A stretch of 44,209 bases of DNA from a virus (lineage: Duplodnaviria; Caudoviricetes): positions 1-44,209 of IMG/VR virus record IMGVR_UViG_3300037424_002275. The stretch is one strand, 5' to 3'. Within the stretch, counting starts at the first letter, position 1. Each line of letters starts with the position of its first letter. Position numbers and translations under genes: made by a program. The notes below the pieces were generated by a model. The model worked only from the letters and a program-made list of their open reading frames with translations, did no database searches and was not told the DNA's origin. This document shows, in pieces, positions 2,421 through 42,032 of the stretch.

Positions 2421-2689
2421 CCCTGACTCCCATCCGTAAGGTGCTCGATGATGATTGCCGCTTCTTCCGGATGGTACAAGTGCTGGATCGCTGCCTTCCC
2501 CTGGTCCATGTCGCCGGGAATTATCAGATTGCCAGGCTTCTTCCCACGCCGGCCGTCACGGGACACAAACCATTCAGTGCCCCATTTTATCCGGCCCTCC
2601 CGATCTTCCCGCATTTCCTGGGAGAGCCGGGCCGCAGTCACCAAGCATTGAGCCTTAGTCAGATACCGTTTCTTCTGGGTCAGATCCAT
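2417..2689 (-). CDS. Hypothetical protein
   Basis: AGGAGG RBS before MDLTQKK. Confidence 0.55.
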   Translation of the reverse strand: MDLTQKKRYLTKAQCLVTAARLSQEMREDREGRIKWGTEWFVSRDGRRGKKPGNLIIPGDMDQGKAAIQHLYHPEEAAIIIEHLTDGSQG

Positions 2690-4652
2690 CGGGTTCCTCC
2701 TGTGCAGGTTGATACCCTGCTTCATGGGCACAGTTCGGACAGAGCAGTTGATCATTAAACTCAATCAGGCCGTCCTCAGGGTGCATTTCGCCGCAGTTAT
2801 AGCAATCTGCAAATTCGCCGGTCCTGCCCGATTCCACAGCTACAACCGCCTCCTCCTTAAGCAAGTCGGACCGATCCGCTATCTCCTTGGGCAGCCGGCC
2901 ATGCAGGTCTACCCCGCAATTCAGAATCAGATTGACCAGGAAGGGTTTCTTTTCCTTGGCCAACTTCTCGATGTCGTTGGGCAAGCCCCGCCCTTTCAAA
3001 TATCGCTGAAATTCCGGATCGGGAAGAAGCCACAACTCAGAACCGATCAGCTTGATAATCTCGGCCTTGGTTTTCTTCTTAAGATATTCCTCCGTGACCA
3101 CAAAATTTTTCCAGTCGATCCCCAGGAACTCGGCCAGGGCCTGCCGGTCTTTATCGTTGAAGACGGTCTCATAGCCCCGGTCTTTCTTAAGAGCCACCCT
3201 TACCAGAGCCTCGGCCAGCAGCACCTTGATCCGGCCCGGATCCAACTCCCGCACCGTGAGCAGCAGAGAAGAAAAGCTAACCGCAAAGGTATAGTAATCG
3301 GGCAACTGGTGAACTGCACGCCCGGTTTCCTGCCAAAACCAATCATGCAGAAACTTGGCCGAATAGAGAACCGTGGCCAGGGTAAGTTGCAGGTGCCGGG
3401 GGTCGTCCGGGTCCAAAGCTTGCATGAGGCTGGGGATTTCCTGATGATAAAATTCCTGCCGGTAAAACTCGCCATGCCAGGGCACCCGGGGAGCATCCGG
3501 GTCTTTGGGTAGGGCCTTGCCGTTTTTATCTCGTCCTCGTTTGCCTTCCTTGACAATCGCGGCGAAGCACTCCTCCTCACCCATGCACACCCATTTATGG
3601 TTAAAAACCTCCAGACCATTCGCCAGGCGCAAGATGGTAGTGAAGTGGCCACACGACTGGCATTTTTCGCCCGGTTTCGGGTCGCCCCAATCGGGAAAAG
3701 CTCCAGTGGTTTCGGTGTTGTAATCCCCGATGATCGCCTGCTGAGTCCCGTACCTGTTCTCTTTACAGGTAGCCCAATTGACATCAAGCCAAGCCTGCTG
3801 TTTAGCCTGAAAACATTCCTGATCCTGACATTGGCCTTTCTCATTACAGGTATCGAAAAGTTTCCGTTGGCAATCAGTGTTCTTGGGGCACGCCTTACAA
3901 TCGGCCTTATCGAAACATGCTTTCTTCAAGGGCAAAGCCATTTGATCAATATTCCTGGCCAGGTCCCGCACCGTAAGGTCTTTGGCACGACTACCGAACA
4001 AACCCGACTGGAGCCTCATATACTCCTCCACCCGGTCCCCCAGGCGTAGAAACTGTTCCATGTGGCCCACATGCCAGGTCCCGGCCTGCCAGAGCACCAG
4101 CACCACCTCAGGCAGCTTAAGGATTTCAAGCCGTTTCCGAATGTACGGCTGCCGGACGCTGAGTTTTTCGGCCAGCACCTTCACCGCTGACTCCCCGTAC
4201 TGCTCGCTGCAGGACCGGATGAACTCGGCCTCCTCATAATCGGTGAAGCCCTCCCGTTGCAGGTTCTCGATGCCGGAGAGGATCATGGCCCGGGCCTCGT
4301 CCATTTCCTCGATCTCACAGCGCAGCACCGCATGAGCCGCATCGACCTTTTCGGAGAGCAGCTTCTTGGCCGCATAGCGCCGGTGGCCGAAGACCAGTTC
4401 ATAAAAATCAACTTGTCCTGACCCTTTGCATCGGAAACAAATTTCTCCAGAATCAGGATTGTACGTATAGCCGCCCCCTGTGCAATCAGGACATGTTTCT
4501 TTTACCGGCCGCACCAGGGCCGCCGACTTCTGGCCTTCCCGCCTGATGCTGGCCGCCAGGTCCTTAACCGCAGCCGGGTCCAGCCGTGAAGGTGGATTCC
4601 AGGGCGCCGGCCGAATCTGATCAAGGGGTATTTCGTGGATCTGGTTAGACAC
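2655..4652 (-). CDS. ParB/RepB/Spo0J-family protein with inserted Zn finger and Cys-rich C-terminal region
   Basis: IPLDQIRPAPWNP, LAASIRREGQ, YELVFGHRRYAA, ENLQRE, HTH region; CPDCTGGG..CFRCKGSG insert. Confidence 0.88.
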   Translation of the reverse strand: MSNQIHEIPLDQIRPAPWNPPSRLDPAAVKDLAASIRREGQKSAALVRPVKETCPDCTGGGYTYNPDSGEICFRCKGSGQVDFYELVFGHRRYAAKKLLSEKVDAAHAVLRCEIEEMDEARAMILSGIENLQREGFTDYEEAEFIRSCSEQYGESAVKVLAEKLSVRQPYIRKRLEILKLPEVVLVLWQAGTWHVGHMEQFLRLGDRVEEYMRLQSGLFGSRAKDLTVRDLARNIDQMALPLKKACFDKADCKACPKNTDCQRKLFDTCNEKGQCQDQECFQAKQQAWLDVNWATCKENRYGTQQAIIGDYNTETTGAFPDWGDPKPGEKCQSCGHFTTILRLANGLEVFNHKWVCMGEEECFAAIVKEGKRGRDKNGKALPKDPDAPRVPWHGEFYRQEFYHQEIPSLMQALDPDDPRHLQLTLATVLYSAKFLHDWFWQETGRAVHQLPDYYTFAVSFSSLLLTVRELDPGRIKVLLAEALVRVALKKDRGYETVFNDKDRQALAEFLGIDWKNFVVTEEYLKKKTKAEIIKLIGSELWLLPDPEFQRYLKGRGLPNDIEKLAKEKKPFLVNLILNCGVDLHGRLPKEIADRSDLLKEEAVVAVESGRTGEFADCYNCGEMHPEDGLIEFNDQLLCPNCAHEAGYQPAQEEPDGSDPEETVSD

Positions 4653-6622: not shown

Positions 6623-7072
6623 TTAATGCAGAGCCTTGAGGGTGTCGTGGAGCTTGCGACGACGGTTACGCTCATAAAGAGCATGACAGCTTAAATGATA
6701 AAAGCTGGTTCCATTTTGCTTTACTTTTTTTATAGAATCATACTCCTTGCAAAAACAACATCTACGCCAATCAGCATGCCCGCAAGCCTTATGTGCTCTG
6801 GTCCTTTGCTCTAATAGCATGTGATAAGCATTATCCTGACAAATCACTAAAGGACCATTGTCTTTAGAGCCATTGGCATGATGTACGGCCGCTCTCTTAG
6901 GCAGCGGTTTGCCAAATGCTTTTTCAGCAATAAGAATATGCTCGAACACATATCCTCTGCTATCCGCTCTTGAATGATGAGGCATATGAATTTGAACATA
7001 GCCGCGGCCGTGAATTTTGCATCCACCTTTCCAATTTGGATTGTTCGAACCGAATTGGTCTGCTTTTGCCAT
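6623..7072 (-). CDS. HNH homing endonuclease
   Basis: NPNWKGG, GYVFEHILIAEKAFGKPL, VHHANG..DN..LVIC..H; AT-richer than neighbours. Confidence 0.85.
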   Translation of the reverse strand: MAKADQFGSNNPNWKGGCKIHGRGYVQIHMPHHSRADSRGYVFEHILIAEKAFGKPLPKRAAVHHANGSKDNGPLVICQDNAYHMLLEQRTRAHKACGHADWRRCCFCKEYDSIKKVKQNGTSFYHLSCHALYERNRRRKLHDTLKALH

Positions 7073-7842
7073 TAGTGTAAATCCACGAGAGTTTTATGGA
7101 GAAGCCTATGCCTTTCCATGATCTCGTTCACCGGGGAGGTCTTGAGGGCCTGGTTGCAGGCGTTGTAGAGGCTCCAGATGTTGCGGGGCTCAAAGGCCGG
7201 CAGGGTCGGGTGATCCCATTCCCAGTAAGCGTGGGGAATTTGCCGGGGGGAGAGGACGTCGGCCCCGATGAGACGCCCCAGGAGCTCATGACCGTGCAGG
7301 TCACCGATCTTAACTTGCTTCATGGCTTCCACGTCGCTCTTGAGCGCATCCCAGGTCGGGGCATAGCGGTAGAGGGTGCCGATCGCCATATTCTCGATCG
7401 CCTCCCAAACCCCCTGCGTATGTTTCCTGACAATCCTGATTTCCCCGCTCATGGCCAGGTTGTCGCAGACGAAGACCCGGCCGCCCAGGGCCACGCCGAT
7501 GCTCATGGTTTTGTCGTAGCTGTTCCTGATTCCGATGCTGAGGCCCATGTCCTCGTCGTCCCCGTTCTTGTAGGTGAGGACCCCGAACATCTGCTTACCT
7601 TCCCGGGCCAGACCGAAGCTCTCTCGCACCAGGTCCCGGTGCAGCAGGTCCCGGGCGATACCGTCGATCTTCTCGATGAGGGTCAAATGCGGAACCGGGT
7701 GATAGGTGTCGGTCTGCTCCGGGGTGATCACTTCGGCCAGGGCCAGACGGTCCGCAGCTTTTCCGCCACAGTGAAGAACAAGTTTCCCTTCCATCGCTTC
7801 CATGCGTTTCTCCTTTGATTCAGTTGTATGAAATAGCTCCAC
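7072..7842 (-). CDS. DUF932-family protein
   Basis: TYHPVPH, GIRNSYDKT, RVFVCDNL, WSLYNA motifs. Confidence 0.75.
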   Translation of the reverse strand: MELFHTTESKEKRMEAMEGKLVLHCGGKAADRLALAEVITPEQTDTYHPVPHLTLIEKIDGIARDLLHRDLVRESFGLAREGKQMFGVLTYKNGDDEDMGLSIGIRNSYDKTMSIGVALGGRVFVCDNLAMSGEIRIVRKHTQGVWEAIENMAIGTLYRYAPTWDALKSDVEAMKQVKIGDLHGHELLGRLIGADVLSPRQIPHAYWEWDHPTLPAFEPRNIWSLYNACNQALKTSPVNEIMERHRLLHKTLVDLH

Positions 7843-8705: not shown

Positions 8706-9128
8706 TTAAAACGGAATGTCATCCTCCATACTGCCACCGCCACCAGCCGGCGCGCTACGATCCGGAGGAAGACCAGTGTCGCTTTCCTCACGCCGGCCGC
8801 CAGTGCCGCCCAACATTTGCATCGACTCCAGGACGATGTCAGTCGTATAGTGCTTCACGCCGTCCTTCTCATAGGACCCGTACTCTATCCGGGCCTCGAC
8901 GAGGACCTGGCTGCCCTTGTGCAGGTACTGGCCGCAAATCTCCGCCAGCTTCCGCCAGGCCACGCACCGGTGCCATTCGGTCTTTTCCTGTTTCTGACCA
9001 TCAGCCCCCGTGTACTTCCGGCTCGTTGCCAGGGAAAACTTGCATACTGCCGTCCCCCCCGACGTGTACCGCATCTCCGGGTCGCTCCCCAGGTTGCCGC
9101 ACAGAATAACCTTATTGAACCCTGCCAT
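8706..9128 (-). CDS. ssb: Single-stranded DNA-binding protein
   Basis: NKVILCGNLGSDPEMRYT, EKTEWHR, LHKGSQV, DDIPF tail. Confidence 0.96.
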   Translation of the reverse strand: MAGFNKVILCGNLGSDPEMRYTSGGTAVCKFSLATSRKYTGADGQKQEKTEWHRCVAWRKLAEICGQYLHKGSQVLVEARIEYGSYEKDGVKHYTTDIVLESMQMLGGTGGRREESDTGLPPDRSAPAGGGGSMEDDIPF

Positions 9129-9667
9129 ACCTACCTCCACTCAGGTTTCACCACCTACCTGAAAGGCCCATTGTATTTCCTGGTTATCTCAAGCCCTCTC
9201 CAGTAAAGTTCATAGGTTCCCTGATTCATGTAACAAGGAAACAAAAACGCCGCTTGAATTAAGCTGAGATAATAAAAATAGGTAGCCATATTTTCCCCTT
9301 GACTTCCCCTCCCGCCACGTGATATACCCCGTGTCACGAAGGATGGTTGTTTTAAGAAAAGCTTTTAAAATAACTACCTAGTAAACGTAACCAATATAGG
9401 AAATCCCACCACCACACTCCCCTGCCAGCATCACTTTCCATCACAACCTTATAGCTAAAATTCACCTTTTCCACCTCCACAAATTGCCCTGAAATGTGTC
9501 AACCACGCTGGTTTGATCAATTACCTCTCCAGAGAGAAAAATTGGGGGGAAAATGATGTTCAGGTTTTGATACATATCGTGCATTTTGCAATGCCATGTT
9601 CACATATTGAAACATTACCCTTTACACAAGTGTAAAATACTGCATGGATAAAGAGTTTCCGGGGTGT

Positions 9668-12082: not shown

Positions 12083-12661
12083 TTAGCGGCGATACTGTGG
12101 GTTCGGGTTGGGCGTCGACGGGACGGTCCAGACCAGGACCGGCTTGCCCAGGCGCTTTGCAATCTCCATCGTATGGGCCGTCCCCTTGCTCACTCCATCC
12201 CATAGGGCAGCCACCCGATCGCAGCACATGACCATCTTCCAGTTGCGGGCGAACCCAGCCGCCCCTTTCAGGATCTCCCAATCTTCGGCCGTGACTTTGT
12301 AGACTTCCGTCTTACGACCGTATTTCTCGGACAGGATATGATGCGCCAGAGCGTCGACGCCCGCGGCCCCACCCGAGATGAAGATGGTATTGCGGGGATA
12401 GAGCTCTATCAGGTGTTGTACGAAGCAGGCTGCCAGGTCGTACTCCCAGTGTGCCCGGGAACCGGTGACCAGGACCCGGAGAGCCGGTGTCGGGGGCGCA
12501 GCAGGCTCAGGCGGCGGGGCAATCGAGATCACCGGGCCATGCGTGACTTCACCCGAGAATTCACAGGTATTGACGTCCGGACATTCCATGCAAAGGGTAT
12601 TCGGATGTTCACAAACTCCAGAAGCTTCAACTCCATGCTGATTTCCCATGACTTCCTCCAC
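12083..12661 (-). CDS. YspA/DUF2493-like SLOG-family protein with Cys-rich N-terminus
   Basis: RVLVTGSR, FISGGAAGVD, AGFARNWKMV, WDGVSKGTAHTMEIAKRLGKPV; AGGAGGT RBS before GTG 12661. Confidence 0.85.
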   Translation of the reverse strand: MEEVMGNQHGVEASGVCEHPNTLCMECPDVNTCEFSGEVTHGPVISIAPPPEPAAPPTPALRVLVTGSRAHWEYDLAACFVQHLIELYPRNTIFISGGAAGVDALAHHILSEKYGRKTEVYKVTAEDWEILKGAAGFARNWKMVMCCDRVAALWDGVSKGTAHTMEIAKRLGKPVLVWTVPSTPNPNPQYRR

Positions 12662-13227
12662 GACGGTTTCACCTCCTACCGACAAGGCCAGATTAACAGA
12701 ACCACCACACACACAGTTTGCCCGAGAGCTCGTTGGTCTTAGGCCAGCATAATGACGGCTTCATTCGATACGGGCGATAGAGTTGGACAAGGTGAGCTGT
12801 GTGTGTGTGTGCGAAGTAATAGCGACCCCTGGCATAGGACGTACACCTTTTCATGGTTTTACTGGCAGTTGGGCCGGGCCTTTCGGCCTTACTGCCATAA
12901 ACCAGGATTAGAAGGTGTAGTCGTAGGCCAGAGAGGAGCGGTAAATCTTTGGCTTTTGGTGGAAGGAGGGAAGTACGGACTTGTTAGACTCCTTGAACGG
13001 TCCGTACTTGCTGTGGAAGACATTGAATTATGCCGAAGCATGACCGACTGGAACCATTTTGCCCTGCCGGAGGCACCTTGCCCGCTTCGGGCCATTTCAG
13101 ATTGCAGTGCCCCGCCGAGTGCTTCCCTGGCCAATGAAGGGGGCAGGGGTGACCCCTTCTTGGCCTTGGGAATTAGCAGGAGGCGGGATAATTTTAGATT
13201 GATTCCGCCCTGCCGGAGGCCAATGTC

Positions 13228-13269
13228 AGATTTAGGCTTTTCATTTTAGATTTAGGCTTTTCATTTTAG
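13228..13269. repeat. 20-bp tandem duplication
   Basis: AGATTTAGGCTTTTCATTTT x2 plus partial copy. Confidence 0.9.
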
Positions 13270-13357
13270 TTTTCATTCGCCTTGAGTCATCATTCCAGTA
13301 GCCCACTGCTCTCCACGACACTAGTTCTCTTTAAAGACCATCATCAAAATCGTTCGC

Positions 13358-13392
13358 AAAAAAAGAAAGGCCCTGATCCGAAGACCAGGGCC
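13358..13392 (-). terminator. Intrinsic terminator with cUUCGg tetraloop
   Basis: GGCCCTGGTC-TTCG-GATCAGGGCC-TTTCTTTTTTT on the - strand. Confidence 0.85.
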
Positions 13393-13399
13393 CCAACCG

Positions 13400-13537
13400 C
13401 TACTCCTGCAGGCCTTCCATGACGTCAGCTATGTACTCAGCCGTGTACTGACCTACGGCGTTCCCCACGTAAGCCGCAGAAGAGAACAGAACCACCAACC
13501 CCACGATAGCCACGAGAACCATCCGAAACGAGAACAT
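13400..13537 (-). CDS. 45-aa single-pass membrane peptide (not in ORF track)
   Basis: GGAGGT RBS; MFSFRMVLVAIVGLVVLFSSAAYVGNAVGQYTAEYIADVMEGLQE; terminator follows immediately. Confidence 0.7.
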   Translation of the reverse strand: MFSFRMVLVAIVGLVVLFSSAAYVGNAVGQYTAEYIADVMEGLQE

Positions 13538-13567
13538 GATCTACCTCCAGAGAGAGTTACGGGCCCT

Positions 13568-13877
13568 ACCAGGCCCGGACACGAAGCGAGCAGACAGCGG
13601 GAGGCACCGGGACCCCAAGAGCCCCCAGCCGCCACCCAGGACGCAACACCGCACAGGCACAAGCGAGACAGGACGAAGGCCCCGACACCCGAAAACGACG
13701 ACCACAACAAGGACAAAGGCACGAGAACACAGCAGCACCCCCAGCACGAGAAGCCCCGGAGCCGAACCAGCCCCGAACCGACAGGCGCTGCCCAAGCAGC
13801 ACGAGAGGAGGGGAAAAGCAAGGCGCCGGACCGAAGGGAGGCCGGCGTAGGGGGGAGCACCGACCCAGGAGCGAGCC
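13568..13877. other. T-free (+) / A-free (-) tract
   Basis: No T in 13568-13788; only two T (13789, 13848) in 310 nt. Confidence 0.97.
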
Positions 13878-14202
13878 TTACTTGTGACGGTGGATATTTA
13901 CGACTGAGTTTCCTTTACGGCCAGACCGCGGCGGGCGGACCCCCGGAGACCGCTTGGCCTTGCTTTTGCCCCGACGGCCCGTGATACAATTGGGCGAGCA
14001 GGCGGGCGGGCTTTGCTTTTGCAAGGGCTATCAAGCCCGGAGCCGGGGGGGTCCGGGGAGCGGCTGAGCGCCCCCGGGTTTTTGATCTATCGCGTGTCCA
14101 TGCAGGAAATAGTTCCGACATTCCTCTGAAGCCAGACACTTCAAGGCCTCGATGCTTCCCTACACAGCAGGAGCGCCGAGTACGCTTTTCGAGGAAGACT
14201 GT

Positions 14203-14310
14203 CAACCAAGAGAAACAAGAGGGCAAAGAGGGGGGCGGGGGGAGAACGGAGACGCGGGGAGGGGGACCCCGCGCCGGACCCCCGGGGGGGGCCAGGAGGG
14301 GGGCCGAGAC
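14203..14310. other. Second T-free (+) tract, G-rich
   Basis: 108 nt without T. Confidence 0.93.
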
Positions 14311-14998
14311 TCCACGCCTCCTGGGGCGCACAAAGGGGGGGCTCGGGGGGAGCTCCCCCCCTTAGAGCTTTTCACCTCAGAAAAAGCTTGTGGATGGAAT
14401 ACCTATGCAGTTGATTACCGCAGGCCCCGGACTAAGGGGGCCGGAGGACCGGGAGCGCAGAACACATTAGCTCCAATGCAGATAGAGTCTCCTGCGTAGC
14501 AGAAGCCAACACCTTTGCCACGGAGCCAGGTGGGTAGGGTTACGTTCTCTGTTTATCGTCCACACATAGGGCATGCACACATAGAGCACCCATGCACAAG
14601 GAAGGCAACAAACACACAGGTGAGCTATCATCTCACCATATGAGTATCCTATGCCCTCTGTCCTCATCGCCAGCCAAGGGGAGCACCAGACACCCCCACC
14701 CCTATTACCTTCAATCTTTCTTCTCCTCCAATATTACCTACCCAGAAATTTTAAAATTCCTGCCATCCCCCTCCTCTAGGAAGAAAACACCCCTAAGAGT
14801 AAGGACAGGTGTAGTTCTCCCGAGGTGACCAATTTGCCTCTAGGAAGACCAGGAATAATTCTGGAATATTTCGCACCCTTTTCACACCTGGATCGAGCCA
14901 TCTGAGTCCAATAAAAGGGAGAAAAGACGTGATTTGTCCAAGAAAGTGCGGAAAAGGCATGAATTGTCCAGAAGCGTCATTATTTTGACACTTTTTTC

Positions 14999-15027
14999 TT
15001 GACAGGGTTATAGGGTGCAGGTAGAGT
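14999..15027 (+). promoter_or_regulatory. Sigma70 promoter upstream of the late operon
   Basis: TTGACA-17 nt-TAGAGT, preceded by a GTCA-N6-TGAC palindrome. Confidence 0.7.
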
Positions 15028-15077
15028 TAAATCACTCCGTTTGACACCTTTTGCCGCAGCACCGCCGCCGCAGTAGC

Positions 15078-15120
15078 AAGCCCCCCGGGAGTCTGGGCAA
15101 CTCTCGGGGGGTTATTTTTT
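15078..15120 (+). terminator. Intrinsic terminator in the late leader
   Basis: AGCCCCCCGGGAGT...ACTCTCGGGGGGTT-ATTTTTT. Confidence 0.8.
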
Positions 15121-15382: not shown

Positions 15383-15871
15383 ATGGCGCGGAAACGAGAA
15401 GACGACAAGAATTGGGCAGACCGTGGGCGGATAGATTTCCACCGCTGTTACAACGAAGCGGAGGGGTACTATCTGGCCGGACTCTCTTTGGATGAGATTT
15501 CCGAGCGGTTATCGCTGGACCTGGAGCGTCTTCGTGATTGGGAGAAGGAATACCAGTGGAAAGCGAAACGGGCAGCGATGATAACGAGTCCCCGGGGAAT
15601 TGGGGCGATGTTGCGAGAGCGCCTGCAGCGCCAGATGGAAAAAATGTCAGCATCGACGGGGGACCTGGAGGTTGACGAAGTAAAGAAGATCACGGAGTTG
15701 ACCTTGTTAATCAACAAGACTGAGGGAGCGGGGGGCAATGTTCTGGCGGCGATGGTGGAGGTCCTGAGGGATTTCAGCCGGTACTTGCGGGAGCACATTG
15801 GGGACCGGGACCAATACCATCTTGTCTCATCCTGGGTGCAGGAATATTTGAGGTCAAAAACAGACGTCTAG
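15383..15871 (+). CDS. terS: Terminase small subunit (HTH, DUF1804/Mu-like)
   Basis: GLSLDEISERLSL..LRDWEKEYQW HTH; upstream of TerL. Confidence 0.75.
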   Translation: MARKREDDKNWADRGRIDFHRCYNEAEGYYLAGLSLDEISERLSLDLERLRDWEKEYQWKAKRAAMITSPRGIGAMLRERLQRQMEKMSASTGDLEVDEVKKITELTLLINKTEGAGGNVLAAMVEVLRDFSRYLREHIGDRDQYHLVSSWVQEYLRSKTDV

Positions 15872-15874
15872 AGA

Positions 15875-16345
15875 TTGGAAAAACTTATGGGAAGACCAAA
15901 AGGATCAATAGGTAGAAACAGATTGTCTTTGGAACCCCTGAATCCATCTGGATTATGTTTTTGTGGTTGTGGCCAAAGAACTCCAATAGCACAGCAAGGT
16001 CTCAAGAGAGATCAGTGGGTTAAAGGCCAGCCAATCAGATTTATCCCAGGCCATCAGAAGAGAAAACCAGAAGGCAACAAATTCATTAATCGTGAAGGGT
16101 ATGTGCTGGTAAAACAGACCGGTCACCCAAGATCAGACAATAGCGGTTATGTTTTTGAACATGTTTTGGTTATGGAAAAAGTTTTAGGCAGACCAATTTT
16201 ATCAACAGAGGCGATTCATCATATTGATGAGGTTCGTCACAATAATGATCCTGGCAATCTTATGTTATTTGCCAAACGTGGAATGCATTCGGGGTTCCAC
16301 AGAGACCTTGAATTTCGAACCAAGATGGAGAGTGCCGATGTGTGA
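15875..16345 (+). CDS. HNH homing endonuclease
   Basis: LCFCGCG, RFIPGH, GYVFEHVLVMEKVLGRPI, IHHIDEVRHNNDPGNL. Confidence 0.88.
   Translation: MEKLMGRPKGSIGRNRLSLEPLNPSGLCFCGCGQRTPIAQQGLKRDQWVKGQPIRFIPGHQKRKPEGNKFINREGYVLVKQTGHPRSDNSGYVFEHVLVMEKVLGRPILSTEAIHHIDEVRHNNDPGNLMLFAKRGMHSGFHRDLEFRTKMESADV
16151..16257. repeat. 107-bp identical segment shared (inverted) with 39942-40048
   Basis: Base-by-base match of the HNH core coding sequence. Confidence 0.9.
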
Positions 16346-39697: not shown

Positions 39698-39876
39698 CCA
39701 GTAGCCCCCCTTTTTTTATCCTTAAGCCATGTTTCAATTTCTTCCGCATCGAACCGCACGCACCGCTCTATCTTATAGTGCGGTATCACACCCCGGCGCA
39801 CCCAGGAAAAAACGGTAACTGGGGGCACGCCGAGTTTTTTGGCCAAATCCTTAGCCGAGATTAATTGCAGGTCCAT
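39694..39876 (-). CDS. xis: Excisionase (HTH_17)
   Basis: LISAKDLAKKLGV..TVFSWVRRGVIPHYKI..VRF. Confidence 0.88.
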   Translation of the reverse strand: MDLQLISAKDLAKKLGVPPVTVFSWVRRGVIPHYKIERCVRFDAEEIETWLKDKKRGATG

Positions 39877-40324
39877 TGCTCCATCCCTTCAAGCCACCAT
39901 GAAATCTCGTATGCATTACAATTTTAGCAAACAACATTAGGTTGCCAGGATCATTATTGTGACGAACCTCATCAATATGATGAATCGCCTCTGTTGATAA
40001 AATTGGTCTGCCTAAAACTTTTTCCATAACCAAAACATGTTCAAAAACGTATCCCCCAACGGCTCTTGGATGATCTGGACTATGTATTTTTACATAGCCA
40101 GTTTTATGAATAAACCTTCCTCCTTTCCACTGAGGATGATTTTCACTATTGTGGTTGTGACCATTAACAAACCGCATATGTTGACCCTTCACGATGCCCT
40201 TTCTTGAATCATTTTTAGGGGCGATTGCAGTTCTTTGGCCACAACCACATTCACATAAGCCTGGCGTCACCTTGGGTACGCAGAGACGTCTTGCCAGTTC
40301 TTCGGGAGAAATTAACTGCGTCAC
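39851..40324 (-). CDS. HNH homing endonuclease
   Basis: LCECGCG, HPQWKGG, GYVFEH..IHHIDEVRHNNDPGNL. Confidence 0.88.
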   Translation of the reverse strand: MTQLISPEELARRLCVPKVTPGLCECGCGQRTAIAPKNDSRKGIVKGQHMRFVNGHNHNSENHPQWKGGRFIHKTGYVKIHSPDHPRAVGGYVFEHVLVMEKVLGRPILSTEAIHHIDEVRHNNDPGNLMLFAKIVMHTRFHGGLKGWSNGPAINLG

Positions 40325-41639: not shown

Positions 41640-42032
41640 TTATGCAGCTTTTCTTCTTTCAAAAGCTGTGTGCATGGCGGTTGTAGCAAAAACCATTAAA
41701 TTGCCAGGCACATTATTTTTCTTTTTACCATCAATATGATGTACTGCTTCTGAAATCAAAATAGGACGGCCCAGGGCTTGTTCGGCTACCAAAATATGTT
41801 CAAACACATATCCTTTTTTATCGGCCCTGTGGTGCCCAGGTTGATAAATAACAATATAGCCACCCCTTAATTGTCTACCACCTTTCCAGCCCGGATGATC
41901 TTTGCCCGACCTTGCACCCCCGCTATGACCTTTAATAAAACGCAAAGACTGACCTTTAAAAATCCCATATTTTGTGAAAGTACGATCAGCTATTCGGGTT
42001 TCTCGACCACAACCGCATCCACATTTTGCCAT
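41640..42032 (-). CDS. HNH homing endonuclease
   Basis: CGCGCG, HPGWKGG, GYVFEHILVAE, VHHIDGKKKNNVPGNL. Confidence 0.88.
   Translation of the reverse strand: MAKCGCGCGRETRIADRTFTKYGIFKGQSLRFIKGHSGGARSGKDHPGWKGGRQLRGGYIVIYQPGHHRADKKGYVFEHILVAEQALGRPILISEAVHHIDGKKKNNVPGNLMVFATTAMHTAFERRKAA

Follow-up and report, generated by a model that had tools for sequence, protein, structure and literature searches.

Promoters that act on single-stranded DNA are known from conjugative plasmids (PMC12672017 and PMC9849209). In the geometry described in PMC9849209, one arm of a fold-back serves as the template. Frpo1 and Frpo2 of plasmid F and ssi1-3 of ColIb-P9 (class 1) are single-strand stem-loops that rebuild -35 and -10 boxes, a property shared by the computed fold described here (PMC9849209 and PMC11541004). 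The klcA and ardA promoters of pESBL represent class 2, and their starts mapped by 5' RACE matched the prediction (PMC12672017); a class 2 promoter of F ("ssp2") was predicted independently (PMC13478746). Our search of titles and abstract openings, covering few subscription journals, returned neither a single-strand promoter in a tailed double-stranded phage nor adenine-free bacterial or phage genes.

The window analyzed here is a stretch of 44,209 nt that constitutes a whole virus record, with a terminal repeat of 127 nt and an estimated completeness of 53% (CheckV). The phage is tailed and temperate; besides integrase, terminase, portal, and head genes, it has a leftward arm carrying SLOG, SSB, DUF932, and ParB genes. 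The locus of interest, a predicted fold-back at 13787-13999 that heads an adenine-free tract, is in the noncoding gap that separates this arm from the small terminase gene at 15383 (Table 1).

Table 1. Coordinates of the predicted fold-back promoter, the adenine-free unit, and genes of the leftward arm
Feature	Position	Strand or direction	Remarks
Right (non-template) arm	13957..13999	+	Pairs with 13787-13824
TG-extended -10 TACAAT (13985-13990)	13982..13990	+	5/6 to consensus; in mismatch bubble; 19 nt from -35
-35-like hexamer TTGCTT	13960..13965	+	Fully paired in fold
Left (template) arm	13787..13824	+	Purine-rich, one T (13789)
Predicted +1 (A)	13789	-	Templated by T13789, which pairs with A13997; 7 nt past -10
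Adenine-free tract (thymine-free on +)	13568..13847	-	Runs of 221 nt (13568-13788) and 58 nt (13790-13847)
Shine-Dalgarno-like GGGGGTG, adenine-free	13736..13742	-	5 nt before GTG start
54-codon adenine-free ORF (MFSCLCPCCG...CLAC)	13566..13730	-	Adenine-free run ends exactly at its TAG
45-codon ORF	13400..13537	-	GGAGGT Shine-Dalgarno; hydrophobic N-terminal half; adenine 15% (ordinary)
Intrinsic-terminator-like hairpin	13367..13394	-	12-pair stem plus T tail; closes predicted ~420-nt transcript
Promoter-like site, separate	13290-13263	-	
SLOG gene	12083-12712	leftward	Normal adenine content, 20%
SSB gene	8706-9140	leftward	
DUF932 gene	7072-7842	leftward	
ParB gene	2655-4652	leftward	

The fold resembles the class 2 klcA and ardA promoters (pESBL, F, and ColIb-P9) in its paired CCTTGC/GCAAGG core at the -35 box, its -10 bubble on the 3' arm, a spacer other than 17 nt (15 nt in klcA and ardA, 19 in the window), about 140 nt between the arms, and boxes that face away from the gene in linear DNA. 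Unlike class 2, its arms are about 19 kcal/mol weaker, it sits in a temperate tailed phage in which no relaxase was found (PF03432; no Pfam relaxase match among the 57 window ORFs), and its predicted message is adenine-free, whereas the leading genes of F and ColIb have 41 to 59 adenines in their first 200 nt. The upstream hairpins of klcA and ardA gave no blastn match to the window and an uninformative alignment; the 6-bp CCTTGC/GCAAGG core alone is shared. A broader comparison (blastn, word size 7, E value 1) of 13500-14400 with sequence from F (14 kb) and ColIb-P9 (20 kb), including Frpo1/2 and ssi1-3, likewise gave no match. From the modeled structure, the fold likely works like a class 2 promoter without being a member by sequence, and is likely not an Frpo/ssi element of class 1.

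The first-pass annotation had compared a larger nest of inverted blocks, 13813-14190, with Frpo/ssi elements. That resemblance did not survive, there being no sequence match and only unremarkable folding stability (z of -0.86 for the nest and of -0.78 to -1.25 for the fold as redrawn here). In addition, Frpo/ssi folds are long continuous rods of -95 to -118 kcal/mol per 400 nt, unlike the window's, and folds of 300 nt in the window reach only -65 kcal/mol, less stable than the -75 screen used in PMC12672017. The class 1 regions and the window do share ssb, parB, and DUF932 genes further on along the same strand. No Rfam family matched the window at gathering scores.

The same annotation proposed that a fold-back on the + strand fires leftward into the adenine-free tract. 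The geometry for this is present, but the structure is 13787-13999 rather than 13813-14190; it uses the AAAAGC left arm of the nest with a different partner. This redrawn pairing of 13787-13824 with 13957-13999 is the minimum-energy fold in three contexts (13775-14010, 13700-14100, and 13700-14200). Its helices comprise 11 bp (13814-13824/13957-13967), then 4 bp, 4 bp, and 6+3 bp, with pair probabilities of 0.97 to 1.0 in the -35 helix, 0.7 to 0.97 in the downstream helix, and 0.46 to 0.6 in the GGGG/CCCC helix; A13984, A13986, A13988, and A13989 are unpaired. In this computed structure, the boxes are rebuilt on a template fold-back facing a gene, while in linear double-stranded DNA the right-arm boxes point away from the adenine-free genes. 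A scan for sigma-70 consensus sites found no leftward promoter upstream of the tract and hence no equivalent double-strand promoter of the sigma-70 type for the gene. Sigma-70 spacing would set the start at 13789.

The arms alone have a computed energy of -34.1 kcal/mol (z of -4.1), a strength matched by 0 of 300 block shuffles and 0 of 4,398 genome windows of like geometry; the arms were picked after the fold had been seen, so that these figures overstate their significance. The wider halves of the fold have z values of only -0.56 and -0.22, and the whole fold is unremarkable (13770-14010, z of -0.78, 10 of 60 shuffles as good; 13785-14000, z of -1.25, 8 of 60).

A test for fold-back promoters, fixed after four loci (L061, L065, L103, and L106) had been seen, was applied to computed structures. 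Sixteen of 586 genome windows passed, representing 13 distinct sites. The site at 13787-13999 had arms of -35.0 kcal/mol, compared with -8.0 to -20.0 kcal/mol at the other 12, and was the only one with a thymine-free template. Two of six plasmid controls passed, namely the regions upstream of klcA in F and of ardA in ColIb, while the three class 1 regions and a methylase region failed. Both passing controls have TTGCAT-15-TAAGAT, a loop of 143, and a template span of 32; the corresponding values in the window are TTGCTT-19-TACAAT, 139, and 27. The CCTTGC/GCAAGG core around the -35 box occurs in both controls and in two other adenine-free loci, L060 and L065. The arms of klcA (-53.6 kcal/mol) and L065 (-58.6 kcal/mol) are stronger than those of the window, and the whole-fold z values of klcA (-2.9) and ardA (-5.2) contrast with -0.78 to -1.25 in the window.

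The predicted template leads into the adenine-free tract, in which T13789 is the lone T of 13568-13847; reading from 13789 to 13568, the - strand contains one A in 222 nt. At the composition of the genome, the expected number of thymine-free runs this long is about 1e-22, and the next longest on the + strand are 108 nt, in the same gap, and 47 nt. The tract, which closes at a TAG, carries the adenine-free Shine-Dalgarno-like signal and the GTG start, and a similar pattern of Shine-Dalgarno sequence plus start heads the adenine-free stretch in 11 of the 17 loci examined. The encoded 54-residue, cysteine-rich protein contains CPCC and CLAC and is likely a small zinc ribbon; CPCCGR is also found in the first adenine-free ORF of another locus (L116). 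The two remaining frames of the minus strand were disfavored, though not disproved, on the grounds of Shine-Dalgarno sequence, stop position, and cysteine pattern. The product of the 45-codon ORF that follows is likely a membrane peptide. Neither ORF matched a family in Pfam, PHROGs, or NCBIfam, and the best score of the 54-residue protein in the ESM Atlas, 0.81, gave no usable lead.

Further features lie upstream in the same gap. The second thymine-free run of the + strand (108 nt) occupies 14203-14310, and two G-quadruplex-like clusters of G tracts, of seven on the + strand, lie within 14221-14360. The strongest local folding in the gap (z of -3.5) is at 14250-14449, and no ORF or promoter accounts for the thymine-free run there. 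At the edge of that run, 14200-14205 reads a perfect TTGACA on the - strand, followed 17 nt on by a poor -10, TACTCG; no partner arm for this TTGACA was found.

How far the predicted unit extends bears on the suggestion that this is a plasmid-style leading region. Gene content agrees, with SLOG, SSB, DUF932, and ParB in the leftward arm and ssb, parB, and DUF932 also in the leading region of F; as in conjugative leading regions, the establishment genes (ssb, parB, and DUF932) are present on the template strand. However, the terminator-like hairpin and the separate promoter-like site suggest a unit of two genes only. Since both these sites, which lie in DNA shared with the nearest relative (L001), precede the SLOG gene, which is located beyond the terminator-like site, the fold probably drives the two small genes rather than the whole arm, and the establishment genes probably form a separate transcription unit. 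No ArdA, KlcA, or PsiB gene was seen.

Adenine-free loci with DprA-like genes were gathered from virus contigs, genomes, and plasmids. The window resembles the adenine-free DprA/SLOG-like operons of cyanobacterial plasmids and phages (L054-L119) in its adenine-free coding strand, GGGGGTG-type Shine-Dalgarno sequence, GTG start, and small cysteine-rich first ORF, but lacks the adenine-free DprA-like gene. Its portal family (phrog_10963) is present in five of nine adenine-free virus records checked (G001, G002, G412, G414, and G415). On plasmids, adenine-free loci head operons with ArdA, SSB, ERF, Rad52, or DUF2493 genes. A fixed link to the packaging end as a general rule was rejected, as the orientation of the adenine-free operon varies among phages: in G001 and G002 it points the same way as the head genes, whereas in G003, G004, and the window it runs against them.

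Applied to 37 of these loci (excluding duplicates, loci without an adenine-poor stretch, and those with <250 nt upstream), the fold-back test passed six on the template strand and none on the other strand, whereas shuffles passed in 12 of 296 cases and distant control stretches in 0 of 68; four of the six had already been noticed by eye when the test was set. One of four loci fetched afterwards passed, weakly, and two of its eight shuffles also passed. In a stricter scan, the window and two of 33 other loci passed (shuffle expectation, 0.08 in all), and loci seen by eye were missed; duplicates, two loci without an adenine-poor stretch, and six with <250 nt upstream had been dropped. The clearest case is L065, where long helices flank a bubble containing TAAAAT. 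L060 has a -35 helix with arms 130 nt apart and is cut off by the contig end; the phages of both loci carry the portal and head families of the window. The remaining 31 of 37 loci fail, many having ordinary -10 boxes on the adenine-free strand, and adenine avoidance therefore does not need this fold. At many cyanobacterial adenine-free genes (L075, L081, L085, L095, L101, and L104), a TATAAT promoter lies inside a short palindrome that could be either an operator or a miniature fold-back. Long near-perfect hairpins also occur upstream of adenine-free genes at L085 (1380-1470), L090 (1650-1790), and L119 (about 990-1135), with TTGAC on both arms and no clear -10.

One true homologue of the 54-residue protein, P0020, was found among 1.84 billion proteins; the second of two matches was unrelated. 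It is 87% identical over 54 residues, with an identical stop and start context, and has CPVC for CPCC, so that CPxC and CxxC are kept. Read through at the protein level, P0020 retains the ORF and the codons close to the stem, but has diverged in the loop that separates the arms. The codon at the position of the lone A reads Arg, not Gln, and the lone A is probably not kept.

Nucleotide relatives of the cassette were sought widely. The nearest relative of the phage, L001, is 89% identical in the terminase gene and shares both flanks but not the cassette. Blastn of 13400-14500 against phages and 72,556 plasmids gave no match, and no DNA homologues of the arms were found in viral contigs, metagenome contigs, or 401 genomes of one phylum, where two short matches both lay outside the cassette. 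A cassette 18-mer had no match in viral contigs and 26 in metagenome contigs, all due to chance. Small terminase, SLOG, and ORF alignments yielded no relatives in viral contigs. SLOG relatives of 80 to 90% identity were found on contigs of up to 45 kb. Small terminase relatives were present in 19 of the 401 genomes, none with a thymine-free tract in the 1.5-kb flanks, and thymine-poor spots in large terminase relatives (L013 and L016) proved unrelated. No RNA holder is listed among the sequencing runs. Contigs of one wastewater run cover short pieces of the window only, including 13569-13747 with three differences. The contig matching 13569-13747 is 190 nt long and of doubtful RNA label; its match comprises the Shine-Dalgarno sequence and the adenine-free ORF only, with loose letters upstream of 13747.

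On the computed structure, we lean slightly towards the redrawn fold serving the adenine-free gene as a functional single-strand promoter. A single + strand would fold at 13787-13999, the right arm providing the -35 and -10 boxes and the left arm the template. Host RNA polymerase, meeting a -35 duplex and a pre-opened -10, would initiate at 13789 and copy leftward, using one adenine and then 221 adenine-free bases. The resulting message of ~420 nt would encode the cysteine-rich protein and the 45-residue peptide and stop at the terminator-like hairpin. Because the boxes face away in double-stranded DNA and no leftward sigma-70 site was found, the unit would be turned off once the DNA became double-stranded, and second-strand synthesis would in this way silence it. 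The fold may form and be used by polymerase in the cell, with a possible role in establishment or counter-defense. The strand might be exposed by passage of prophage or circular phage DNA or by resection during recombination; we judge single-strand passage (conjugative or by natural competence) or end resection likelier than cruciform extrusion, for which the arms, 132 nt apart and imperfect, are poorly suited.

Several reasons for excluding adenine can be envisaged. It may permit escape from adenine-directed RNA defenses, a thymine-free template may escape DarT-type modification, and binding of SSB may be low. Easier release of the RNA from a weak hybrid is weakly supported: adenine-free RNA averages -1.70 kcal/mol per step, compared with -1.88 when each U is given the value of A, and ordinary genes have -1.53 to -1.69. 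A Z-genome explanation was rejected, with no PurZ-like match among the 57 ORFs and with the opposite strand being the depleted one.

If the fold works, DNA of a tailed phage spends useful time single-stranded, and that moment is exploited for gene control. From the models, the fold likely represents a single-strand switch of the plasmid type in a tailed phage. The predicted start coincides with the start of the perfect adenine-free run and thereby offers a handle on why genes of mobile elements drop one base. A bolder and doubtful extension is that the device might be a trip-wire common to the phage group, in which the + strand, bared in lytic entry or in replication (by nuclease resection of a genome end, for instance), would fold into the promoter, and promoter and base depletion would form one device. 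The message would then need one ATP and none for the next 221 bases, on a thymine-free template; the first counter-defense protein would be made from the very single-stranded DNA under attack; and neither adenine-directed RNA defenses nor thymine-directed DNA defenses would find a target.

The boxes on the right arm might instead belong to an ordinary promoter of double-stranded DNA. TG-A-TACAAT would then drive a short rightward RNA from about 13997 to 14083, the arm match being incidental or an operator, and the adenine-free gene would be read from an unseen leftward promoter. An extended -10 works without a -35, a GC hairpin followed by TTTTT at 14055-14083 could end the RNA, and the whole-fold z of the redrawn structure is unremarkable. 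We nevertheless regard it as unlikely, given that the hairpin was not called as a terminator, the sigma-70 consensus scan found no such leftward promoter, the redrawn arms are far above background, and the matching boxes in L065 point into repeat-rich DNA that has no evident gene. Rightward and leftward outputs could also coexist.

The single-strand promoter reading is also to be weighed against priming. The sso of rolling-circle plasmids is a hairpin on single-stranded DNA that is read by RNA polymerase, and Frpo reportedly serves both transcription and primer synthesis, to judge by a 1997 title of Masai and Arai. This dual role, and the presence of SSB and recombination genes in the window phage, would suit a fold that acts mainly as an ssi/sso-like signal, providing an adenine-free primer for complementary-strand synthesis, with the ORFs secondary. 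The 54-residue protein is, however, conserved in P0020, the end of the tract coincides with a stop codon, a Shine-Dalgarno sequence and start are present, and a terminator-like site follows the second ORF. Unlike in sso plasmids, no rolling-circle initiator was seen among the 57 ORFs scanned. Priming as the main function therefore appears improbable.

We attach equally little probability to the cassette being a decaying relic of a conjugative element that no longer works in this phage. Such a history would fit arms weaker than those of class 2, the absence of the cassette from L001, the missing DprA-like gene, and a leader about 65 codons shorter than that of P0020. Under drift, however, 221 adenine-less nucleotides should erode, and the recurrence of the portal family in five of the nine other adenine-free virus records points to a trait that recurs in the phage group.

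The nest 13813-14190 remains to be accounted for. The blocks named in the first-pass annotation lie at or near their given places, and once registers are corrected every one of the 53 pairs is Watson-Crick or G-T, but the arrangement does not exceed chance. Folding of 13800-14200 did not outperform shuffled sequences on either strand (+ strand, z of -0.86, 18 of 100 shuffles as good; - strand, z of -0.82, 19 of 100), and the supposed preference of G-T wobbles for the + strand is compositional, with z alike on both strands. Among + strand windows 200 or 300 nt long within 13700-14150, none reaches a z of -1.5; 14000-14199 (+) has -2.5 but contains the right-hand nest arms only. Forced by constraint, the nest has -64.6 kcal/mol, compared with -78.5 for the free fold (-73.7 and -94.8 with more left flank), and its sampled pair probabilities are ≤0.06. 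The outer helices attain 0.1 to 0.5 only in a sequence trimmed precisely to 13813-14190; including 13700-13812 brings them to 0. The outer-arm duplex (-22.7 kcal/mol; shuffled mean, -21.1) is equaled by 90 of 300 composition-matched shuffles and the nest halves by 64 of 300. As a stable fold the nest was thus rejected on its unremarkable z, worse forced energy, and shuffle-like arms, and its left arm, 13813-13824, is the sole part that belongs to the supported fold. That the nest is the working structure, or an "off" conformation sequestering the AAAAGC arm, is very improbable: its 53 pairs are possible and roughly coaxial, its outer helices show some probability in the exact cut, and three GCTTTT copies might compete for that arm, but with the left flank present it is less stable than the best fold by 14 to 21 kcal/mol, its arms are no better than shuffles, and one of them, CCTACAC, is part of a motif that L001 has in four copies, all on a single strand.

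Several other elements of the region were recorded. The GCTTTT copies at 13962, 14015, and 14184 are weak direct repeats, each able to pair with the AAAAGC arm. The motif CCTAC(A/G)CAGC occurs in four copies on one strand upstream of the terminase genes of L001 (1832, 2179, 2254, and 2369) and once in the window, at 14159, in the corresponding place; it is perhaps a protein-binding repeat. Four related HNH endonuclease genes are present in the window (6623-7072, 15875-16345, 39851-40324, and 41640-42032), and the one after the small terminase gene is absent from L001. A noncoding stretch at 13063-13340 is kept at 77 to 80% in L001 (1336-1652), with the motif CCCTGCCGGAGG repeated at both ends; the consensus fold has 35 pairs, one of them compensatory, and the stretch is possibly a regulatory RNA or a leader for the leftward arm. 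At 14999-15120, a 14-pair terminator-like hairpin comes no more than 100 nt after a promoter-like TTGACA-17-TAGAGT; L001 keeps both, which suggests a short RNA or an attenuator before the terminase operon.
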